NCBI GenBank assembly: GCA_963674735.2
Contig: CAXXQS010000002.1
Location: 1,920,001 to 1,984,000, forward strand
DNA length: 64,000 bases
Origin: Myxococcota bacterium
GTDB taxonomy: Bacteria; Myxococcota_A; SURF-8
Direction of reading: 5' to 3'
This document shows, piece by piece, positions 55,876-63,999 of this stretch (the stretch's first letter is position 1; each line of letters opens with the position of its first letter). The notes beneath the pieces are model-generated. The model made no database searches and was not told where the DNA came from. It saw only the letters and a program-made list of their open reading frames with translations. Position numbers and translations under genes: made by a program.

Positions 55876-58278
55876 ATGGGTGAGGAATTCCAGCGGTGCG
55901 TGGTGATCGGAGCGGGCTGGATGGGCGCGAGTATCGCGGCCCTGGTAGCCAGTGCCGGAGTTCCGACGGATTTGCTCGACCGATTGCCGCCGGTGGAACC
56001 CGGCGATGACGAAGTGCAAAACGGCTTCAGCCGGTTTTCCGATGCCTGGCGCAACAGCCTCGCTATCGGAGCCTCGGAGAGAGCTCGTTCACGCGGAGCT
56101 TTTCTTGCTCCCGAAGCGGTGACGCGGGTGCGTACCGGGAACATCGCCGACCACCTGGAGTGGATACGGCAGGCCGATTGGGTGATCGAAGCCGTCCCCG
56201 AGGTGCTGGATGTCAAACGGGCCACCTACGAACGGATACTCCCGCACCTCCGGCCGGAAACGGTTGTCAGTTCAAATACTTCCGGTATTTTGGCTTCGCG
56301 TTTAGCCGAGGGACTTCCCGATGATTTCGCCAAGCGTTTCATGGTGGGACACTTCTTCAATCCGGTGCGCTATATGCGCCTACTTGAAATTGTTGCAAAT
56401 CCGCGCACCGAACGCCAGGCGGTGGAACGACTCAAAGATTTTGCCAGTAAACGGCTTGGAAAAGGGGTGATCGAATCCCGCGACAAGCCGAATTTCGTAG
56501 CCAATCGCATCGGACTTTTTTCGTTGTTGACGGCCATGCACCACGCCCATGAGATGGGGATCGGTGTGCGTGAAGCCGACCGCCTGACCGGTCATGCCTT
56601 GGGACGCGCCAGCTCGGCGACCTTTCGCACGGCCGATCTGATTGGCCTGGATGCGCTGTTGCTGGTTCTAGACAACTTACACGGTATGTTGGCGGGCGAT
56701 CCCTGGCGCGAGCGTTTTAACGCCCCGGCTTTTTTCCGTATTTTGGTTGAACGGGGAAACTGGGGCCAAAAAAGCGGTTCGGGTTTTTATCACTATTTCG
56801 AAGAGAGTCAACGCCCCGGAGATGAGACCTTCAACCTCGATAGTCTGACCTACAAACGCAACGAGACGCGCCGTTTCGCCACGCTGGATCGAGCGTTCGA
56901 ACAACCCAATCCAGGCGAGCGTATCCGAGCCTTGATTTCCGGTGACGACGAGGGCGCCCGATTTGCTTGGGCCGTGTTGCGCGATACTTTGGTGTATGCG
57001 GCGGCGTGTTTGGGGGAGATTACCGATCATCCCATCGCCATCGACCGCGCCATGCGTTGGGGCTACAATTGGGATCTCGGTCCCTTCGAGATCTGGAACT
57101 ATTTGGGATTGCAGGACGTTGCCGAACGTATCGAACGCGATGGGGTGGCCTTGCCTGAAACGGCCAAGCGTCTTCTGGATAGCGAGCAGTCCGGCTGGTA
57201 TTTCGAAGAGCGCGGCCGTCGTTTCGAATGGGATCCGAAAAGCGCCGAGCTCAAACTCATTCCACGCCCTTGTTCCGTGAGTTTGAATACCATGCGGCGC
57301 GAGCATGATGTCCTGCTGACGCAGGGCAATGCGGTTTTAGCCGATTTGGGTGACGGCGTCGCCTGTCTGAGTTTGGCTTCGCGTTATGATGAAGCGCCGA
57401 TCATCGATACACAATTGGTGGGGTTGATTCGTCGAATCCAGGATGAGTGCAACACCCGCAAATTCAAAGGGCTGGTCATTCTATGCGAGGCGGCCGATTT
57501 TCTGCTCGATCTGGATTTCGAAACCCTGCTGGTCCGCATGGCCGATCATGATTGGGATGCGATCGAACAGGAAGTGATCGATCGCCAGCAAGCAAGCCTG
57601 ATGTTGAAACGCATCGGGTTTCCCGTTGTGGGCGCCATCAGCGGCCGCGCCATCGGGGCCGGATGTGAAATCGCCTGCCATATCGGACGTCTGCAAGTTC
57701 ACGCGGAGGCCCAATTCGCCATCGGTAATCTGGCGATGGGACTCATTCCGTCTGGCGGCGGCACCAAGGAACTGTTGTATCGGCTGATGGACCGGGTACG
57801 TATGGACGGTCCCCACCCGCTTGCACGCGCTGCCTTCCAAACCGTTTTTCCCGGCAAGGTGATCAAAGGCGCTTTCGAAGCCCGCAGTAGCGGATTTCTG
57901 CGTCGCGGCGACCGTCTGACGATGGGAATCGACCGCTTGTTGCCGGATGCAAAAGCCATGGTGCTCGACTTGATCGAGAACGGGAACAGTCTGCCCTTGT
58001 CCGCTCCCTTCCACCTGCCCGGTCCCGGTGGAGTGGCGGCTTTACGACTGGAGTTGCAGCATATGCAGCGACAGGGGTTGTTGAGTCCGCACGATGTGAC
58101 GGTCGGGGAGAAGCTGGCGGAAGTGTTATGTGGGGGGGAAACCTCGCCGTTTGAAGAGGTCAGCGAGGCGCAGCTGCTCGACCTGGAGCGCAAGGCCTTT
58201 GTCGATCTGTGCAAAATGGAAAAGACCCAGCAGCGGATCGAGCATTGGGTGAAAACTCGCCGCGTTCTACGCAACTAA
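55876..58278 (+). CDS. FadN-like 3-hydroxyacyl-CoA dehydrogenase / enoyl-CoA hydratase fusion
   Basis: GAGWMG, EAVPE, SSNTSG, HFFNPVRYMRLLE, GQKSGSGFY; C-terminal crotonase-like domain (GAGCE, GLIPSGGG). Confidence 0.88.
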   Translation: MGEEFQRCVVIGAGWMGASIAALVASAGVPTDLLDRLPPVEPGDDEVQNGFSRFSDAWRNSLAIGASERARSRGAFLAPEAVTRVRTGNIADHLEWIRQADWVIEAVPEVLDVKRATYERILPHLRPETVVSSNTSGILASRLAEGLPDDFAKRFMVGHFFNPVRYMRLLEIVANPRTERQAVERLKDFASKRLGKGVIESRDKPNFVANRIGLFSLLTAMHHAHEMGIGVREADRLTGHALGRASSATFRTADLIGLDALLLVLDNLHGMLAGDPWRERFNAPAFFRILVERGNWGQKSGSGFYHYFEESQRPGDETFNLDSLTYKRNETRRFATLDRAFEQPNPGERIRALISGDDEGARFAWAVLRDTLVYAAACLGEITDHPIAIDRAMRWGYNWDLGPFEIWNYLGLQDVAERIERDGVALPETAKRLLDSEQSGWYFEERGRRFEWDPKSAELKLIPRPCSVSLNTMRREHDVLLTQGNAVLADLGDGVACLSLASRYDEAPIIDTQLVGLIRRIQDECNTRKFKGLVILCEAADFLLDLDFETLLVRMADHDWDAIEQEVIDRQQASLMLKRIGFPVVGAISGRAIGAGCEIACHIGRLQVHAEAQFAIGNLAMGLIPSGGGTKELLYRLMDRVRMDGPHPLARAAFQTVFPGKVIKGAFEARSSGFLRRGDRLTMGIDRLLPDAKAMVLDLIENGNSLPLSAPFHLPGPGGVAALRLELQHMQRQGLLSPHDVTVGEKLAEVLCGGETSPFEEVSEAQLLDLERKAFVDLCKMEKTQQRIEHWVKTRRVLRN

Positions 58279-58322
58279 GGGTTGTGGCGTTGCCGGGCAT
58301 GTACCGGGAAGTGCAGTCCTGT

Positions 58323-58877
58323 TCATGTCTCTCGAACCTTGGTTTTCTTGAACTTCATGCCCGTACATTTGGCTTTTCGGATCGCTTTGACAATGGGCTC
58401 GGCCAAAAACGTCGTACCGCAGCCGCGCGGTCGAATCACTCGACGATCACCCAGTTTCGACCGTTGCAACACTGGAGCGACAACGGATGATTTGCTGATC
58501 TTTCCATCCATGCCATAGCCGTAATCCGTCCATTCCTCGTCCAGCACGTCCGGTCGGTCGGGGATGTGCAGGGCGTAGTAGGTGTGAAGGATGCCGTCTT
58601 GGTCTACAACGATGTTTTCCAGCCATTCGTAGGCATCGCTCGGCGAGGCATTCTGATCGATGATGGATCTAAGAAGTGGCGAACATAATTCCCAGCCTAA
58701 ATCATTGACAAGATAGTCGGTAAGGATTCCATCACGTAGCTCGAAGATTACCGGTTTCCATTTGTCGTAATGCTTCCCTTCCTGTCTCAGTGTCGGATAA
58801 AGGCCCTGAGGTGTATATCCAACACCGAAGGACATGTCGGAACTGCGAAAAAGATTGTAGAATATTTTCTGAGCCAT
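58323..58877 (-). CDS. Imm11 (DUF1629)-like immunity protein, cassette 7
   Basis: DYLVNDLGWELCS, YYALH...DVLD, KAIRKAKCTGMKF; start MAQ with AGGAG RBS. Confidence 0.75.
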   Translation of the reverse strand: MAQKIFYNLFRSSDMSFGVGYTPQGLYPTLRQEGKHYDKWKPVIFELRDGILTDYLVNDLGWELCSPLLRSIIDQNASPSDAYEWLENIVVDQDGILHTYYALHIPDRPDVLDEEWTDYGYGMDGKISKSSVVAPVLQRSKLGDRRVIRPRGCGTTFLAEPIVKAIRKAKCTGMKFKKTKVRET

Positions 58878-58954
58878 GTTATCTCCTAAGCTTTGCAACG
58901 ATTTATTCATACCACTCGGATCGTATCATGCCCGGTTCAGCTGTAATATGGGAG

Positions 58955-59521
58955 TTACACTACACGCTCTATTTTGAATTTCATGCCCGTGCATTTGGCT
59001 TTCTTGATGGCTTTCACAATTGGTTCTGCAAGAAAAATTCCCGGAGAATGCCGAGCACGAACAACTCGGTAACCATCGATTTTATTTCGACTGAATATAG
59101 GCCAGATAACTCTTCGCTTATCAAATGTGCCATCTTGATTATGGCCATAACTGCCAGCAGCTCCCATTGCATCCTCATCCAACACGTCCGGTCGGTCGGG
59201 GATGTGTAGGGCGTAGTAGGTGTGACGGACGCCGTGTGGATCAATAACGATGTTTTCCAGCCATTCGTAGTTGTCTTTGGGCGAGGCGTGCTGATCGATG
59301 ATGGATTTCAGTCGCTCCGAACACAAGACCCAGCCTAAGTCGTTGACAAGGTAATCGGTAAGGATTCCATCACGTAGCTCGAAGGTTACTGGAACCCAAT
59401 TATCGAAAGACGTTTCTTCCCAACGTAGAGTCGGATAGAGACCATTTGGTGTATAACCGACTCCGAAGGCAAAATTGCCGGAGCGAAACAATGAGTAATA
59501 TTTCATCGGCGATTTATTCAT
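58955..59521 (-). CDS. Imm11-like immunity protein, cassette 6 (divergent C-terminal half)
   Basis: Paralogue of the others; start MNKSP with GGGAG RBS. Confidence 0.75.
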   Translation of the reverse strand: MNKSPMKYYSLFRSGNFAFGVGYTPNGLYPTLRWEETSFDNWVPVTFELRDGILTDYLVNDLGWVLCSERLKSIIDQHASPKDNYEWLENIVIDPHGVRHTYYALHIPDRPDVLDEDAMGAAGSYGHNQDGTFDKRRVIWPIFSRNKIDGYRVVRARHSPGIFLAEPIVKAIKKAKCTGMKFKIERVV

Positions 59522-59576
59522 AGCAAGATCTCCCGTCAATACCATTCACTGCGAACCATACCCGGTTCAGTGCTGT

Positions 59577-60131
59577 TCATGTCTCTCGAACCTTGGTTTT
59601 TTTGAACTTCATGCCCGTACACTTGGCCTTTCGGATAGCTTTGACCACTGACTCGTTTAAAAACACGATGCTGGAATCACGTGGCCGAAAAATCCCATGA
59701 TCGTTGAGCTTCGACCGTTGGAGAATCGGAGCGATAATGCAGGACTTGTCGATGGTTCCATCCGCATTGCGACCGTAATCCGTCCATTCCTCGTCTAGCA
59801 CATCCGGTGGATCGGGGATGTACAAGGCGTAGTAAGAGTGGTGAATACCGTCTTGGTCCACGACGATATTTTCCAGCCATTCGTAGGCATCGTTCGGCGA
59901 GGCATGTTGATCGATAATGGATCTAAGAAGCTGGGAGCACAATTCCCAGCCTAAGTCATTTGCAAGATAGTCGGTAAGAATTCCGCCGCGTAGCTCGAAG
60001 GTTACCGGTTTCCATTTATCGTAATGCTTCCCTTCTTGTTCCAGTGTCGGATAAAGGCCTTGAGGTGTATAACCAACGCCGAAGGACATGTCGGAACTGC
60101 GAAACAGTTTATAGAAAAGTTGTTGAGCCAT
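59577..60131 (-). CDS. Imm11-like immunity protein, cassette 5
   Basis: Paralogue; start MAQQ with AGGAG RBS. Confidence 0.75.
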   Translation of the reverse strand: MAQQLFYKLFRSSDMSFGVGYTPQGLYPTLEQEGKHYDKWKPVTFELRGGILTDYLANDLGWELCSQLLRSIIDQHASPNDAYEWLENIVVDQDGIHHSYYALYIPDPPDVLDEEWTDYGRNADGTIDKSCIIAPILQRSKLNDHGIFRPRDSSIVFLNESVVKAIRKAKCTGMKFKKTKVRET

Positions 60132-60200
60132 GTCATCTCCTAAGCTTTGCAACGATTTATTCATACCACTCGGATCGTACCATACCCGGTTCGATGCTGT

Positions 60201-60755
60201 TCATGTCTCCCGCACCGTGGTTTTCTTGAACTTCATGCCCGTACATTTGGCTTTTCGGATAGCTTTCACGATGGGTTCAGCAAAAGAGGTCGTATTGCAG
60301 CCCCGCGGTCGAATCAGCCGACGATCACCCAGTTTCGATCGTTGAAGCATCGGAGCGACAATGCAGGATTTGTCGATGGTTCCATCCGCATTGCGACCGT
60401 AATCCGTCCATTCCTCGTCCAGCACATCCGGTGGATCGGGGATGTGCAGGGCGTAGTAGGTGTGACGGATGCCATTTTGGTCCACGATAATGTTTTCCAG
60501 CCATTCGTAGTCGTCCTGGGGTGAAGTATGCTGATCGATAATGGATTTCAAAAGATTCGAACAAAGCTCCCAACCTAAGTCGTTGACAAGGTAGTCGGAA
60601 AGAATGCCATCTCGTAACTCGAAAGTTACCGGAATCCATTTATCGTAATGCTTTCCTTCCCAAACTAGTGTGGCGTCGATGTCCCTAGGTGTATAGCCGA
60701 CGCCGAAGGACATGTCGGAACTGCGAAAAACATCGTAGAATAGTAATTGTTTCAT
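60201..60755 (-). CDS. Imm11-like immunity protein, cassette 4
   Basis: Protein identical to cassette 3. Confidence 0.75.
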   Translation of the reverse strand: MKQLLFYDVFRSSDMSFGVGYTPRDIDATLVWEGKHYDKWIPVTFELRDGILSDYLVNDLGWELCSNLLKSIIDQHTSPQDDYEWLENIIVDQNGIRHTYYALHIPDPPDVLDEEWTDYGRNADGTIDKSCIVAPMLQRSKLGDRRLIRPRGCNTTSFAEPIVKAIRKAKCTGMKFKKTTVRET

Positions 60756-60805
60756 CCTTCCCCCTTAATACCACTCGGATCGTACCATACCCGGTTCGAT
60801 GCTGT

Positions 60806-61360
60806 TCATGTCTCCCGCACCGTGGTTTTCTTGAACTTCATGCCCGTACATTTGGCTTTTCGGATAGCTTTCACGATGGGTTCAGCAAAAGAGGTCGTAT
60901 TGCAGCCCCGCGGTCGAATCAGCCGACGATCACCCAGTTTCGATCGTTGAAGCATCGGAGCGACAATGCAGGATTTGTCGATGGTTCCATCCGCATTGCG
61001 ACCGTAATCCGTCCATTCCTCGTCCAGCACATCCGGTGGATCGGGGATGTGCAGGGCGTAGTAGGTGTGACGGATGCCATTTTGGTCCACGATAATGTTT
61101 TCCAGCCATTCGTAGTCGTCCTGGGGTGAAGTATGCTGATCGATAATGGATTTCAAAAGATTCGAACAAAGCTCCCAACCTAAGTCGTTGACAAGGTAGT
61201 CGGAAAGAATGCCATCTCGTAACTCGAAAGTTACCGGAATCCATTTATCGTAATGCTTTCCTTCCCAAACTAGTGTGGCGTCGATGTCCCTAGGTGTATA
61301 GCCGACGCCGAAGGACATGTCGGAACTGCGAAAAACATCGTAGAATAGTAATTGTTTCAT
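60806..61360 (-). CDS. Imm11-like immunity protein, cassette 3
   Basis: Paralogue; GGGGGAAGG RBS. Confidence 0.75.
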   Translation of the reverse strand: MKQLLFYDVFRSSDMSFGVGYTPRDIDATLVWEGKHYDKWIPVTFELRDGILSDYLVNDLGWELCSNLLKSIIDQHTSPQDDYEWLENIIVDQNGIRHTYYALHIPDPPDVLDEEWTDYGRNADGTIDKSCIVAPMLQRSKLGDRRLIRPRGCNTTSFAEPIVKAIRKAKCTGMKFKKTTVRET

Positions 61361-61410
61361 CCTTCCCCCTTAATACCATTCGGAGCGAACCATGCCCGGT
61401 TCGATGTTGT

Positions 61411-61971
61411 TCATGTCTCCCGCACCGTGGTTTTCTTGAACTTCATGCCCGTACACTTGGCCTTTCGAATGGCTTTGACAATGGGGTCGGCCAAAAACGT
61501 CGTGCCGCAGCCGCGCGGTCGGATCACCCGACGATCACCCAGTTTCGATCGTTGAAGCATCGGAGCGACAATGCAGGATTTGTCGATGGTTCCATCTGCA
61601 TTGCGACCGTAATCCGTCCATTCCTCGTCCAGCACGTCCGGCCGGTCGGGGATGTGCAGGGCGTAGTATGTGTGACGGACACCGTGTGGATCAATAACGA
61701 TGTTTTCCAGCCATTCGTAGGCGTCGCTCGGTGAGGCGTTCTGATCGATGGTATTTTTTAGTCGTTCCGAGCATAGGTCCCATCCATACACGATGGCCTG
61801 ATAATCCGTGATTACTCCCACTCGTAAAATGAATTCCACGGGTTCCCACATGTTGTTCTGTTGTCTATCCAACAACATCCATTGCGGTGTTTTATTGATT
61901 ACCTCTGCCACTGGATGATTCAAGTCATCATCCATGAATAGCTTGTAGAAGCTAATAAAAGTATTTTTCAT
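61411..61971 (-). CDS. Imm11-like immunity protein, cassette 2 (divergent N-terminal third)
   Basis: Paralogue; AGGAGG RBS. Confidence 0.75.
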   Translation of the reverse strand: MKNTFISFYKLFMDDDLNHPVAEVINKTPQWMLLDRQQNNMWEPVEFILRVGVITDYQAIVYGWDLCSERLKNTIDQNASPSDAYEWLENIVIDPHGVRHTYYALHIPDRPDVLDEEWTDYGRNADGTIDKSCIVAPMLQRSKLGDRRVIRPRGCGTTFLADPIVKAIRKAKCTGMKFKKTTVRET

Positions 61972-62025
61972 ATTACCCCTCCTATGGATACCACTCGGAT
62001 CGTACCATGCCCGGTTCGACGCCGT

Positions 62026-62580
62026 TCATGTCTCTCGAACCTTGGTTTTCTTGAGCTTCATGCCCATGCATTTAGCTTTTCGAATGGCTTTGACAATGGG
62101 CTCGGCCAAAAACGTCGTACCGCAGCCGCGCGGTCGGATCAGCCGACGATCGCCCAGTTTCGATCGTTGCAACACTGGAGCGACAACGGATGATTTGCTG
62201 ATCTTTCCATCCATGCCATAGCCGTAATCCGTCCATTCCTCGTCCAGCACATCCGGTCTGTCGGGGATATGCAGGGCGTAGTAGGTGTGACGGATGCCGT
62301 CTTGGTCCACGACGACGTTTTCCAGCCATTCGTAGGCATCGCTCGGTGAGGCGTTCTGATCGATGATGGATCTAAGAAGTGGCGAACATAATTCCCAGCC
62401 TAAATCATTGACAAGATAGTCGGAAAGAATGCCATCACGTAGCTTGAAGGTTACCGGTTTCCATTCATCGTAATGCTTCCCTTCTTGTCTCAGTGTTGGA
62501 TAAAGGCCCTGAGGTGTATAACCAACGCCGAAGGACATATCAGAACTGCGAAACAGTTTATAGAAAAGTTGCTGAGCCAT
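62026..62580 (-). CDS. Imm11-like immunity protein, cassette 1 (presumed cognate)
   Basis: Starts 25 bp after the toxin stop; AGGAG RBS. Confidence 0.78.
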   Translation of the reverse strand: MAQQLFYKLFRSSDMSFGVGYTPQGLYPTLRQEGKHYDEWKPVTFKLRDGILSDYLVNDLGWELCSPLLRSIIDQNASPSDAYEWLENVVVDQDGIRHTYYALHIPDRPDVLDEEWTDYGYGMDGKISKSSVVAPVLQRSKLGDRRLIRPRGCGTTFLAEPIVKAIRKAKCMGMKLKKTKVRET

Positions 62581-62605
62581 GTCATCTCCTAAGCTTTGCA
62601 ACGAT

Positions 62606-63592
62606 TTATTCATACCATTCGGAGCGTATCATGCCCGGTTCATCCAGCACTTTTTCACGAACAAAACGGCCAAACAGATCCAGGAATTTATCAGCATCGG
62701 CACCGGCTTCACGTTGTGCTTCTTCCATTTTCTCCAATACAAATTTATGATAATCCTCCGCGTGCCGCCCGGTATGCGGGATTTCAACCTTGTTCCACGC
62801 ACCGTCGAGGTCGAGATCGTAAAAATCGGCGATCTTCTTGAACTCGGGTGTGTACTCCGAATGGTGGGTGTTGGATGCCAGGTGGTGCGTGTGGACTGGG
62901 AAAGACTTCAGCATGTCGCGGATGGCCGCGCGGCGTTCGGGCAGATCGTCCATGGCCTGTAGTGTCCGGCGGGCTTCGGCGACGCTCAGGAATTTCTTCC
63001 CGAATATGTAAACGACCGGACCGATCAGCAGGTCGGAAGGATCGGGAACACCCACCGCTTCAACGACTTCGGCGGCGGCGGCCAGGGCATCGGCGGCCTT
63101 TTGACCTGCCCGGTTCACGTCGGCGAGATAGGCTTGGCTGTCCGAGCCTTCGCCCGCCAGTGCTTGTTCGTGAGCCACCTTCCGTCGGATCTTCGCCTCC
63201 GCCTGATCCACGGGATCGCCGGTGAACCAGGATTTGACCCAGCCGCCCAGATTGTCCGCGTTCCAGAAATCCGATGGCGTTTCCGTTTCTTCATCCTCTC
63301 CGGTGAAGTGGAAGTCCATCTCGTCCATCCCTTCGTCGACCGGCGGTCTCGCGGCTACTTCCAATTTGCAGGCGCAATTGGGATGCAGGGGTGGGTGGAC
63401 GTCCCAATCCTGGGCGAGGCGTGTTTCTCCGTCGAGCGCCGCGCAGGCGTCGCAGGTCTTGTCGCCCGAGGTCACCCAGGTCAGGTATACCCGGTCGCCG
63501 TTATACCCGGCGACGGCAGCCAGGTGTCCGAACCGGCCCAGTTTCGCATAGGCCCGGTAGGTTTGGAGTCGTTCCGTTTCTATCTGCGCCAC
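62606..63592 (-). CDS. Polymorphic toxin: N-terminal minimal MuF (phage head morphogenesis-like) motif plus C-terminal AHH-like HNH nuclease
   Basis: WVTSGDKTCDACAALDG...PPLHPNCAC (MuF-like); THHLAS...LDGAWNKVEIP-HTGRH..YH (AHH-like); GTG start with GAGGAG RBS; followed by Imm11-like genes. Confidence 0.75.
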   Translation of the reverse strand: MAQIETERLQTYRAYAKLGRFGHLAAVAGYNGDRVYLTWVTSGDKTCDACAALDGETRLAQDWDVHPPLHPNCACKLEVAARPPVDEGMDEMDFHFTGEDEETETPSDFWNADNLGGWVKSWFTGDPVDQAEAKIRRKVAHEQALAGEGSDSQAYLADVNRAGQKAADALAAAAEVVEAVGVPDPSDLLIGPVVYIFGKKFLSVAEARRTLQAMDDLPERRAAIRDMLKSFPVHTHHLASNTHHSEYTPEFKKIADFYDLDLDGAWNKVEIPHTGRHAEDYHKFVLEKMEEAQREAGADADKFLDLFGRFVREKVLDEPGMIRSEWYE

Positions 63593-63714: not shown

Positions 63715-63999
63715 TCAGGGTGCATCGGGAGCGTCGGGGTCGTCTTCCAGATTCCACATGAATCGGCAGCGGCCCATCATGCAGGTTTCGATCGGTAAAC
63801 AATCGTCTTGATCCGAACATTGCGGTGGTGAGCACTCCTCGGCGATGCATAAAGCACCGATGGGGCAACTCGTGTCGTATTCACAACTCTGCTTGCGGCA
63901 AAGGGACTCGATGCAGGCGCTTTGGGGTGGGCAGTCGATGTTTGTTTCGCAGGGGAAGCTTTCACAGCCTGCCCGGTAACAAAGATAGCCGACCGGGCA
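63715..63999 (-). CDS. C-terminal end of a Cys-rich repeat protein (runs in from beyond the window)
   Basis: Not in ORF track. Open frame CPVGYLCYRAGCESFPCETNIDCPPQSACIESLCRKQSCEYDTSCPIGALCIAEECSPPQCSDQDDCLPIETCMMGRCRFMWNLEDDPDAPDAP* with a C-x5-C-x5-C-x4-C repeat. Confidence 0.75.
   Translation of the reverse strand, partial: CPVGYLCYRAGCESFPCETNIDCPPQSACIESLCRKQSCEYDTSCPIGALCIAEECSPPQCSDQDDCLPIETCMMGRCRFMWNLEDDPDAPDAP

Follow-up and report, generated by a model that had tools for sequence, protein, structure and literature searches.

Homogeneous polyimmunity loci are proposed to be read as a single polycistronic message and to protect their carriers against toxins of non-kin (Zhang et al., 2012; PMC3482391). 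The parts of that paper that treat such loci link Imm11 to Tox-AHH, name Imm11 among the families that form them, and describe them as never interrupted by toxin genes or cassettes; relics of toxin ends are not mentioned in those parts (PMC3482391). Here we analyse a locus of this already known array type, an Imm11 polyimmunity array behind an AHH toxin gene with scars of the toxin end, on contig CAXXQS010000002.1 of assembly GCA_963674735.2 (a Myxococcota bacterium); the window, whose positions are used throughout, is a stretch of 64,000 nucleotides (nt). Behind the toxin gene stand seven Imm11-like immunity genes in tandem (Imm1 to Imm7); all eight genes are on the minus strand. The unusual detail of the locus lies at the junctions, where short open reading frames (mini-ORFs) that overlap the preceding stop codon as ATGA carry toxin codons in frame, conserved to the grade of a toxin gene. 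The evidence favours inheritance of this conservation from toxin genes over a new function of the micro-ORFs.

The repeat unit (U1 to U7) comprises the last 10 codons of the toxin, a short spacer with a Shine–Dalgarno (SD)-like motif, an immunity gene and about 12 nt of its 3′ flank, and the junctions between immunity genes measure about 40–60 nt. With at least four tandem, co-oriented genes of the same family at small intergenic distances, the array fits the definition of homogeneous polyimmunity in number, orientation and spacing, and in tandem order, shared orientation, single family and short spacing it resembles the loci as Zhang and colleagues describe them (PMC3482391). Unlike the loci of that description (PMC3482391), it is attached to an intact toxin gene, and between its genes there is no toxin domain, yet 10 toxin codons stand at every junction.

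In the account of Kirchberger and colleagues (2017; PMC5361080), immunity arrays in type VI secretion system (T6SS) clusters of Vibrio cholerae arise by sequential displacement, in which the 3′ end of an effector can be shifted back together with its immunity gene. The mechanism proposed there is homologous and homology-facilitated illegitimate recombination, and the mark of duplication is that paralogues are closer to each other than to other strains (PMC5361080). Our array is like these in having one active effector followed by a string of orphan immunity genes, but differs from them, as they are portrayed in that paper (PMC5361080), in having seven genes of one family that are mutual closest relatives, one shared breakpoint and a perfect tandem duplicate. 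The pattern of sequential displacement was not found, the paralogues being 62–100% identical to one another against 41% for the best protein outside, in a comparison that included a single genome of the genus.

Two further kinds of orphan array invite comparison. First, orphan cdiA-CT/cdiI and rhs-CT/rhsI modules are described as displaced toxin-end and immunity pairs downstream of a full toxin gene, where homology permits recombination with the active gene (PMC3150448; PMC3967940), and the toxin-end and immunity modules behind a full toxin gene here follow the same general plan. The difference is that with 10 codons left no toxin could be rebuilt at our locus. Orphan cdiA-CT and rhs-CT modules retain complete toxin domains along with some of the conserved region before them, and their re-activation is possible. 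Second, the rAID-1 arrays of Bacteroidales, as outlined by Ross and colleagues (bioRxiv 10.1101/471110; PMC12247911), combine an XerD-family recombinase with integron-like intergenic motifs and share with our locus co-oriented orphan immunity genes and a repeated intergenic sequence. Here, unlike in those arrays, the repeat is derived from coding sequence and is not a conserved palindrome, and no recombinase or prophage gene was found among nine large upstream ORFs scanned; neither sign of an integron-like or rAID cassette array was thus seen. MuF polymorphic toxins, for their part, are reported to be overwhelmingly prophage-borne (Jamet et al., 2017; PMC5576092), in a paper whose main text contains neither AHH nor Imm11. 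Our toxin gene resembles them in joining a MuF-like N-terminal segment to a toxin domain at the C-terminus, with immunity genes behind it (PMC5576092), and differs in that its MuF match is below the cut-off and the genes scanned show no phage context. A full-text search of the literature, covering articles apart from their supplements, returned no paper that joins immunity gene, toxin, orphan and translational coupling.

The features of the locus, in the order in which they are read, are as follows (aa, amino acids).

62606–63592, minus strand: toxin gene, 328 aa, with a MuF-like N-terminus (residues 5–77, weak) and a predicted AHH-family HNH/EndoVII nuclease domain (residues ~190–328); it starts with GTG preceded by GAGGAG and ends in ...LDEPGMIRSEWYE and a stop
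62606–62641, minus strand: toxin end including the stop, EPGMIRSEWYE, the true toxin terminus and not an orphan
62612–62641, minus strand: T0, the 30-nt tail of the toxin itself (EPGMIRSEWY); next comes GAA TAA, overlapped by ATGAATAAA, the more upstream of the two candidate Imm1 starts
62026–62613, minus strand: Imm1, Imm11-like, 195 aa if read from the ATG overlapping the stop of the toxin, or 184 aa from an alternative, SD-preceded start (M12) at 62580
61982–62029, minus strand: junction 1 mini-ORF, MNGVEPGMVRSEWYP and stop; its ATG overlaps the Imm1 TGA, and after its stop come GAGGGGTAAT and the Imm2 ATG
61411–61971, minus strand: Imm2, Imm11, 186 aa, with the most divergent N-terminal half and a 3′ part near-identical to Imm3/Imm4 (conversion tract)
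61370–61414, minus strand: junction 2 mini-ORF, MNNIEPGMVRSEWY and stop; TAA, then GGGGGAAGG, then the Imm3 ATG
60806–61360, minus strand: Imm3, 184 aa, the same as Imm4, without a Pfam match of its own, 79% identical to Imm1
60765–60809, minus strand: junction 3 mini-ORF, MNSIEPGMVRSEWY and stop; a recombinant tail made by the 605-bp tandem duplication
60201–60755, minus strand: Imm4, 184 aa, protein identical to Imm3
60157–60204, minus strand: junction 4 mini-ORF, MNSIEPGMVRSEWYE and stop; the stop overlaps ATGAATAAA, the upstream candidate start of Imm5
59577–60164, minus strand: Imm5, Imm11, 195 aa (184 aa from M12), a mosaic of Imm1/7-like and Imm3/4-like segments
59536–59580, minus strand: junction 5 mini-ORF, MNSTEPGMVRSEWY and stop, with an AGT serine codon; TGA, then CGGGAGATCTTGCT, then the Imm6 ATG
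58955–59521, minus strand: Imm6, 188 aa (MNKSPMKYY...), more diverged than any other paralogue, also in its 3′ end and flank, where ACATGA is missing
58903–58938, minus strand: junction 6 tail relic, EPGMIRSEWYE and stop, with no upstream ATG and an in-frame TAG 8 codons before the tail
58323–58910, minus strand: Imm7, 195 aa (or 184 aa), 93% identical to Imm1, the last gene of the array
58267–58326, minus strand: array end, a 19-codon ORF (MNRTALPGTCPATPQPLVA and stop) opened by the ACATGAACAG stop context, without a tail, entering the 3′ end of a convergent gene
60163–61378: exact tandem duplication, 60163–60773 being the same as 60768–61378 (611 nt, period 605)

Amino-acid conservation of the toxin tails

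The five mini-ORFs of 14–15 codons were first noticed in a reading of the letters alone (the sequence-only reading), and both their coordinates and their peptides are exact on the minus strand, each ATG overlapping the preceding TGA (..GAGACATGA). Two of the seven repeats lie outside these mini-ORFs, namely the true toxin end (62606–62641) and the sixth orphan junction (58903–58938). Every unit begins with 30 nt that encode EPGM[I/V]RSEWY (GAACCGGG...TGGTAT), and a degenerate pattern for these 30 nt matches seven times in the 5.26-Mb genome, each time at the array (none with the reversed pattern as control); a search of the genome with the immunity protein likewise gave seven matches, all in the array.

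That the changes among the seven repeats are synonymous apart from I/V, with no indels, was also claimed by the sequence-only reading and is borne out by the alignment. Eight of the 30 tail columns vary, namely five third positions, one first position (A/G, the I/V replacement) and three in the TCC/AGT serine codon, with mean pairwise differences per 10 sites of 0.76, 0.29 and 2.48 at codon positions 1, 2 and 3 respectively. In 100,000 random placements of the eight variable columns, not one kept the number of amino-acid-variable codons to one or fewer while avoiding a stop, a figure to be read with the caveat that gene conversion links some copies and that the tails downstream of Imm3 and Imm4 (T3 and T4) are one recent duplicate, so that independent mutational events are fewer than copies. 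Of 158 gap-free 10-codon windows in the immunity alignment, a single one (IPDRPDVLDE, also with eight variable nt columns) is as conserved as the tail. The conservation stops at the tail's edges: the 6 nt directly upstream differ by 40% between pairs against 11.7% within the tail, the sequence directly after TAT falls into four unalignable spacer types, and codons 2–4 of the mini-ORFs (N, G/N/S, V/I/T) are not conserved. Even the junction 6 tail, which has no start codon, differs from the toxin's own tail by two synonymous and no non-synonymous changes. The tail is an island of purifying selection at the amino-acid level.

The tails differ from each other by up to 8 of 30 nt, almost all silent, and the genes around them have diverged to a comparable degree. 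Between immunity genes, Nei–Gojobori estimates of synonymous divergence (dS) are 0.24 for Imm1/Imm7, 0 for Imm3/Imm4 and 0.63–2.8 for the other pairs, with ratios of non-synonymous to synonymous divergence (omega) of 0.12–0.34. Since the proportion of synonymous differences (pS) in the tails, 0–0.88 over 6 synonymous sites, falls in the range of the immunity genes (0.21–0.73), the tails are neither young nor protected at the nucleotide level, and no extra nucleotide-level constraint is visible in them.

In the toxin itself, the decapeptide belongs to a motif shared across a large family. When 1.84 billion representatives were searched exhaustively by HMMER with toxin residues 190–328, 720 proteins matched at E ≤ 1e-3, of which 432 also passed E ≤ 1e-10; the best non-self match had E = 3e-26, and no protein apart from the toxin itself was more than 53% identical. 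Among 150 homologues listed, most have alignments that extend as far as query residues 132–139 of 139, and the typical ending is NPxx[LM][LIV]-R/Y-K-x-x-W plus 0–5 residues, for example ...NNPLIIRREWYP and ...ANPLMVRTEWYK. The tail proline, P130, is invariant both in an alignment of 47 sequences (A2) and in one of nine (A3). The I/V replacement sits where the family has L/I/V/M, and the serine position holds K/R/S/T (T in the homologue P0116); because threonine is accepted there, a Ser-Thr-Ser codon path would be tolerable in a toxin. An AlphaFold2 model of the toxin domain, built on the 47-row alignment, has a mean predicted local distance difference test score (pLDDT) of 87.7 and one of 92 over the last ten residues, which form two short helices. 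Given the family-wide motif and this confident model, the decapeptide is predicted to be a conserved, integral and well-ordered C-terminal part of the toxin fold.

How conserved such a tail is in intact toxin genes can be read from 38 homologous toxin loci fetched with a degenerate DNA pattern for the nuclease core, of which 26 could be parsed as an AHH toxin with a recognisable tail and then an adjacent ORF of 153–200 aa. In 20 pairs of these loci with immunity proteins at least 50% identical, 18 have tails identical at 8–10 of 10 residues and two at 6 of 10, where the pairs share loci and are not independent, and two of the loci (L025 and L029) are identical; three loci at 54–58% immunity identity have tails alike at 10 of 10. 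The tail identity of 9–10 of 10 seen in the array at 62–93% immunity identity is therefore what intact toxin genes give.

Recombination breakpoints and the origin of the start codons

The tails are real recombination breakpoints, and the resident toxin's own tail (in U1) takes part in the exchange. Specifically, TGGTAT, with which the tail ends, is where the two copies of the tandem duplication overlap, and this places the unequal crossover behind Imm3/Imm4 inside the tail, in its final 6 nt. Identity tracts between units are longer than the overall divergence predicts (permutation P ≤ 0.0135, seven pairs tested), and two of them start in the tail and pass through the spacer (U1–U5, columns 25–69; U5–U7, columns 14–58). 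The tail variants also fail the four-gamete test between sites, though repeated mutation at silent sites close to saturation could have had the same effect. Homogenisation by gene conversion from the tail of the resident toxin is judged insufficient as sole cause of the conservation, as synonymous differences in the tails are as large as in the immunity genes.

The start codon of the mini-ORFs has a different source from the tail. Six of the seven immunity genes end in ..GAGACATGAAC, Imm6 being the exception, and after Imm7 the same ACATGAACAGGACT stands before an unrelated 19-codon ORF that has no tail. Because the same context is present at this tail-less array end, the ATG and the next ~9 bases are assigned to the 3′ flank of the immunity unit, and the mini-ORF is that flank fused to a tail; junction 6 has no mini-ORF start because the divergent Imm6 has lost the ACATGA flank. 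We also compared the flank at the array end with the tail as a possible decayed copy, and found no significant similarity (shuffle P 0.2–0.7). A frameshift fusion of an immunity protein to the tail was likewise discarded, there being no slippery heptamer at GAGACATGA.

Each of the seven immunity genes has an SD-like motif of its own at a start codon, so none shows the want of a ribosome-binding site that would mark dependence on a relay. In Imm1, Imm5 and Imm7 the motif is AGGAG, 5 nt before a second ATG (M12); in Imm2 it is AGGAGG, 6 nt before the start, and in Imm6 GGGAG, 8 nt before; in Imm3 and Imm4, GGGGGAAGG stands directly before the start, with a gap from motif to start of 0–4 nt against 5–8 nt in the other five. 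The 3′ end of the 16S rRNA (...GATCACCTCCTTTCT) contains the anti-SD CCTCC, and public gene calls use the SD-preceded starts (184, 184, 184, 186 and 188 aa). Imm1 (62580–62613), Imm5 (60131–60164) and Imm7 (58877–58910) each have two candidate starts, ATGAATAAA without an SD and, 11 codons later, an ATG behind AGGAG. The 31 nt between the two are identical in units 1 and 5 and one base off in unit 7, though the genes differ at pS 0.43, and could be either a conversion tract or a conserved initiation region. The sequence ATGAATAAATCG (MNKS) is kept in units 1, 5, 6 and 7 and overlaps the tail's stop in units 1, 5 and 7 (TATGAATAA).

The sequence-only reading had called the mini-ORFs translationally coupled, an interpretation that is plausible in a limited sense. 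The ACATGA overlap is present at five of the six orphan junctions, and at 60157–60204 the mini-ORF's stop overlaps a candidate start of Imm5; the stops of the other four mini-ORFs, by contrast, lie 9–14 nt upstream of the next start with an SD-like motif between. Coupling where a tail's stop overlaps an upstream start is possible, and among the five mini-ORFs it is the one at junction 4 that has such an overlap. Promoter-like sites in the array number six against 5.3 ± 2.3 expected and terminator-like sites three against 5.4 ± 2.3, with nothing recurrent at the junctions; given this lack of excess or recurrence, it is a reasonable inference from sequence that the array is read as one transcript.

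Readings of the conserved tails

The reading we favour, with a confidence slightly better than even, is that the tails are scars of a growing polyimmunity array and that their amino-acid conservation was inherited from toxin genes. The 3′ flank of an immunity gene would have been joined once to the tail of a toxin gene. Since then, unequal crossing-over and gene conversion have lengthened and rearranged the array, with some breakpoints inside the tails. Conservation of the tails would then reflect purifying selection on toxin function, acting by one or both of two routes: tail, spacer and immunity gene may have sat in intact toxin–immunity alleles of related strains and later recombined into the array, or the tails may have exchanged sequence with the resident toxin's own tail. 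Replacement by a foreign allele is possible because the unit is homologous end to end with a single toxin–immunity locus such as a related strain would carry, and one founding event is simplest because all orphan junctions share one breakpoint (the flank, then GAACCGGG). The mini-ORFs would be a by-product, the ATG supplied by the ACA-TGA ending of the immunity gene having chanced to stand in frame at the founding junction. We favour this reading because of the identity of the tail with the family motif, the calibration on intact loci, the breakpoints inside tails, the intact tail that lacks an ATG, and the freely varying codons that are not of toxin origin; the signs of variant alleles in run X3, described below, add a weak pointer the same way.

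One of the options raised by the sequence-only reading was close to this, namely that the repeats are recent tails of different functional toxins. Descent from functional toxins agrees with the toxin-family motif, its folded state and the 18 of 20 calibration pairs, while the attributes ‘recent’ and ‘different toxins’ are left unsupported, no other toxin with this tail having been found in the genome or in any collection searched.

Several observations weigh against inheritance from toxin genes, most of them concerning the missing donor. The closest immunity homologue outside the contig is the one at 41% identity (12 hits, five of them the contig's own), and relatives of the immunity protein are absent from two contig collections, genome_contigs and metagenome_contigs, neither of which contains a match to the degenerate tail pattern. 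Among 61 genomes (this one and 60 relatives) the immunity protein occurs in this one alone and in none of five genomes of the family, in a set that covers the lineage thinly, with this genome as the only one of its genus. A word search for close relatives of the toxin returned only the query (1 hit among 200 candidates), and the closest toxin among the 1.84 billion representatives is at most 53% identical; with the toxin-domain profile, four of 401 genomes of the phylum match including this one, the other three over the AHH core only and not the tail. The paralogues are closest to each other, which by the V. cholerae yardstick (PMC5361080) points to duplication in place rather than import, and the single breakpoint common to all orphan junctions also fits one founding event. 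Divergence of the units in place (dS up to 2.8) would mean that no toxin contained the tails during that time, yet they are as conserved as the best immunity window. Importing a tail with its spacer would need a crossover within 30 nt, where identity runs reach ~12 nt at most. Finally, a second tail copy downstream of homologous toxins was found in none of 32 loci examined of the 38 fetched, so relic tails are not general in the toxin family. Of two unconvincing hits, the one in L027 is the toxin's own tail behind an internal stop and the one in L034 is weak (score 29); L028, L035 and L055 each have two adjacent ORFs of immunity-gene size with no relic between.

The shared breakpoint and the missing donors also suit an account by selection in place, a reading that we regard as unlikely. 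It holds that the mini-ORFs are translated by restart at the overlapping ATG, with termination at the next immunity gene or shortly before it, and selected where they stand, their peptide acting as a nascent regulator or as a free mimic of the toxin tail. In its fuller form, to which we give an equally low probability, the toxin stumps were co-opted: EPGMVRSEWY would have been under lasting selection within the array (dS about 1 or more), tuning termination and re-initiation so that one message yields all seven immunity proteins, or mimicking the C-terminal helix of the toxin toward Imm11. An in-frame ATGA overlap at five of six orphan junctions, the absence of indels, a constraint matching that of the best immunity window over dS up to 2.8, a single breakpoint with no external donor in any collection searched (suggesting divergence in place), the stop at 60157–60204 that overlaps a candidate Imm5 start without an SD of its own, and the plausibility of one transcript, given no promoter or terminator excess inside the array, would all agree with such selection. 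However, an open frame is all that a ribosome relay needs. Since the peptide itself would be of no account, such a relay alone cannot explain the amino-acid conservation, and in the same mini-ORFs the three codons not derived from the toxin do vary freely. The ATG belongs to the immunity stop context and is present at the tail-less array end too, while the tail at junction 6 is intact without one. Every immunity gene has its SD-like motif, matched by CCTCC in the 16S rRNA and by the starts that database calls use. Moreover, what is conserved coincides with the motif of the toxin family, a folded element of the toxin, and a role specific to the peptide would have to be invented. If the stumps were indeed selected in place, they would represent a new kind of coupling or decoy micro-ORF in toxin–immunity operons, born from scars of toxin genes.

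Conservation of the tails as a nucleic-acid element, be it a recombination handle, a translation-initiation region or an RNA structure, appears improbable; the mostly synonymous changes would then be a coincidence. Recombination breakpoints do fall in the tails, each tail is a 30-nt stretch upstream of the ribosome-binding region of an immunity gene, and the tail of junction 2 forms a 6-bp hairpin (61386–61403, CGAACC-N6-GGTTCG) that is terminator-like on the plus strand. This hairpin is broken in the other tail copies, though, and synonymous sites in the tails are as diverged as in the immunity genes. The reading is largely refuted by the codon-position pattern, in which variation is concentrated at third positions, TCC/AGT keeps serine across three base changes, and none of the 100,000 randomisations does as well.

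It is least probable, and barely credible for the array as a whole, that the tails are neutral remains of duplications too recent for decay to have set in: this is true of one pair, Imm3/Imm4 with the identical downstream tails T3 and T4, and Imm1/Imm7 are fairly close (dS 0.24), but the other units stand at dS 0.6–2.8, the 6 nt beside the tails differ by 40% and the tails carry up to 8 of 30 differences, nearly all silent, which rules out a recent neutral leftover for the whole array.

The locus is a clean natural record of how a polyimmunity array grows, with a probable founding scar, a perfect new duplicate whose crossover lies in six of the scar's bases, and tracts of conversion between units. 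For the discovery of small ORFs it offers a caution, in that the signature of purifying selection in paralogous mini-ORFs may be inherited from a larger parent gene. The signature at issue is the textbook one: silent changes only, a serine codon-family switch and no indels.

Family assignments and gene neighbourhood

The toxin matches Pfam AHH (PF14412) with 39.6 bits against a cut-off of 22.3 over residues 230–303. The histidines H47, H48, H84, H88 and H93 of the AHH domain are invariant in alignment A3, and in alignment A2 H88 is invariant and the other four are at least 90% conserved; from the profile and the conserved HH dyad and histidines, the toxin is a predicted AHH-family nuclease. 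Its N-terminus matches Phage_Mu_F with 24.4 bits, under the cut-off of 29.6, over profile positions 32–111 of 112. When the six distinct paralogues were scanned with Imm11 (PF07791, cut-off 22.1 bits), four scored above it (Imm2 29.4, Imm5 35.7, Imm6 31.8, Imm7 24.5); Imm1 reached 16.9 bits, under the cut-off, and Imm3 (the same as Imm4) had no match, while the identity of the other immunity proteins to Imm1 is 63–93%. Their place directly behind an AHH toxin is as expected of Imm11 proteins, which are encoded next to AHH, HNH or SHH toxins. A co-fold of the toxin domain with Imm1 scored 0.19 against a mark of 0.32, a score that speaks neither for nor against the pair, and no solved structure matched the toxin or the immunity proteins at E ≤ 1.

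Upstream, the toxin's neighbours encode a Cys-rich protein, a PD40 propeller protein and sugar-modifying enzymes. The Cys-rich ORF (63715–63999, minus strand), in which spacings like C-x-x-C recur, is the toxin gene's immediate upstream neighbour; it is open and runs on into the adjoining sequence (L015, 3–539), and it is followed further upstream by the PD40/beta-propeller protein of 977 aa. The toxin gene may be a MuF-toxin remnant stranded outside a prophage, or may belong to another delivery module. The genes downstream of the array were inspected as ORF translations; the convergent gene there ends at 58278, and the array finishes 44 nt before its stop.

Short-read contigs of two public runs (X1 and X3) break throughout the 60163–61378 region, and because of this fragmentation and the perfect duplicate, assemblies of this organism may misstate how many copies the array has. 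Run X3 comes from another sample taken in that study. In it, a piece of Imm7 148 nt long (58353–58500) carries five differences, and contigs match parts of the locus exactly and then continue with sequence that does not resemble it, as at 63214 within the toxin gene. These pieces are a weak hint of a related strain whose toxin C-terminus or array layout differs. Among the homologous toxin loci, that of a Suipraeoptans intestinalis contig (L027, 2700–2790) has an in-frame stop 13 codons before the toxin tail (..QMK, stop, then KIINNPDILYKDYWNKQ and a second stop), and this toxin may be a pseudogene or reflect a sequencing error.

Antisense ORFs of 125–146 aa on the plus strand cross the immunity genes and junctions (58790–59209, 60147–60524, 60689–61129 and 61294–61734). 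They recur because the units recur and we take them as spurious, the silent-site pattern matching the minus-strand frame.

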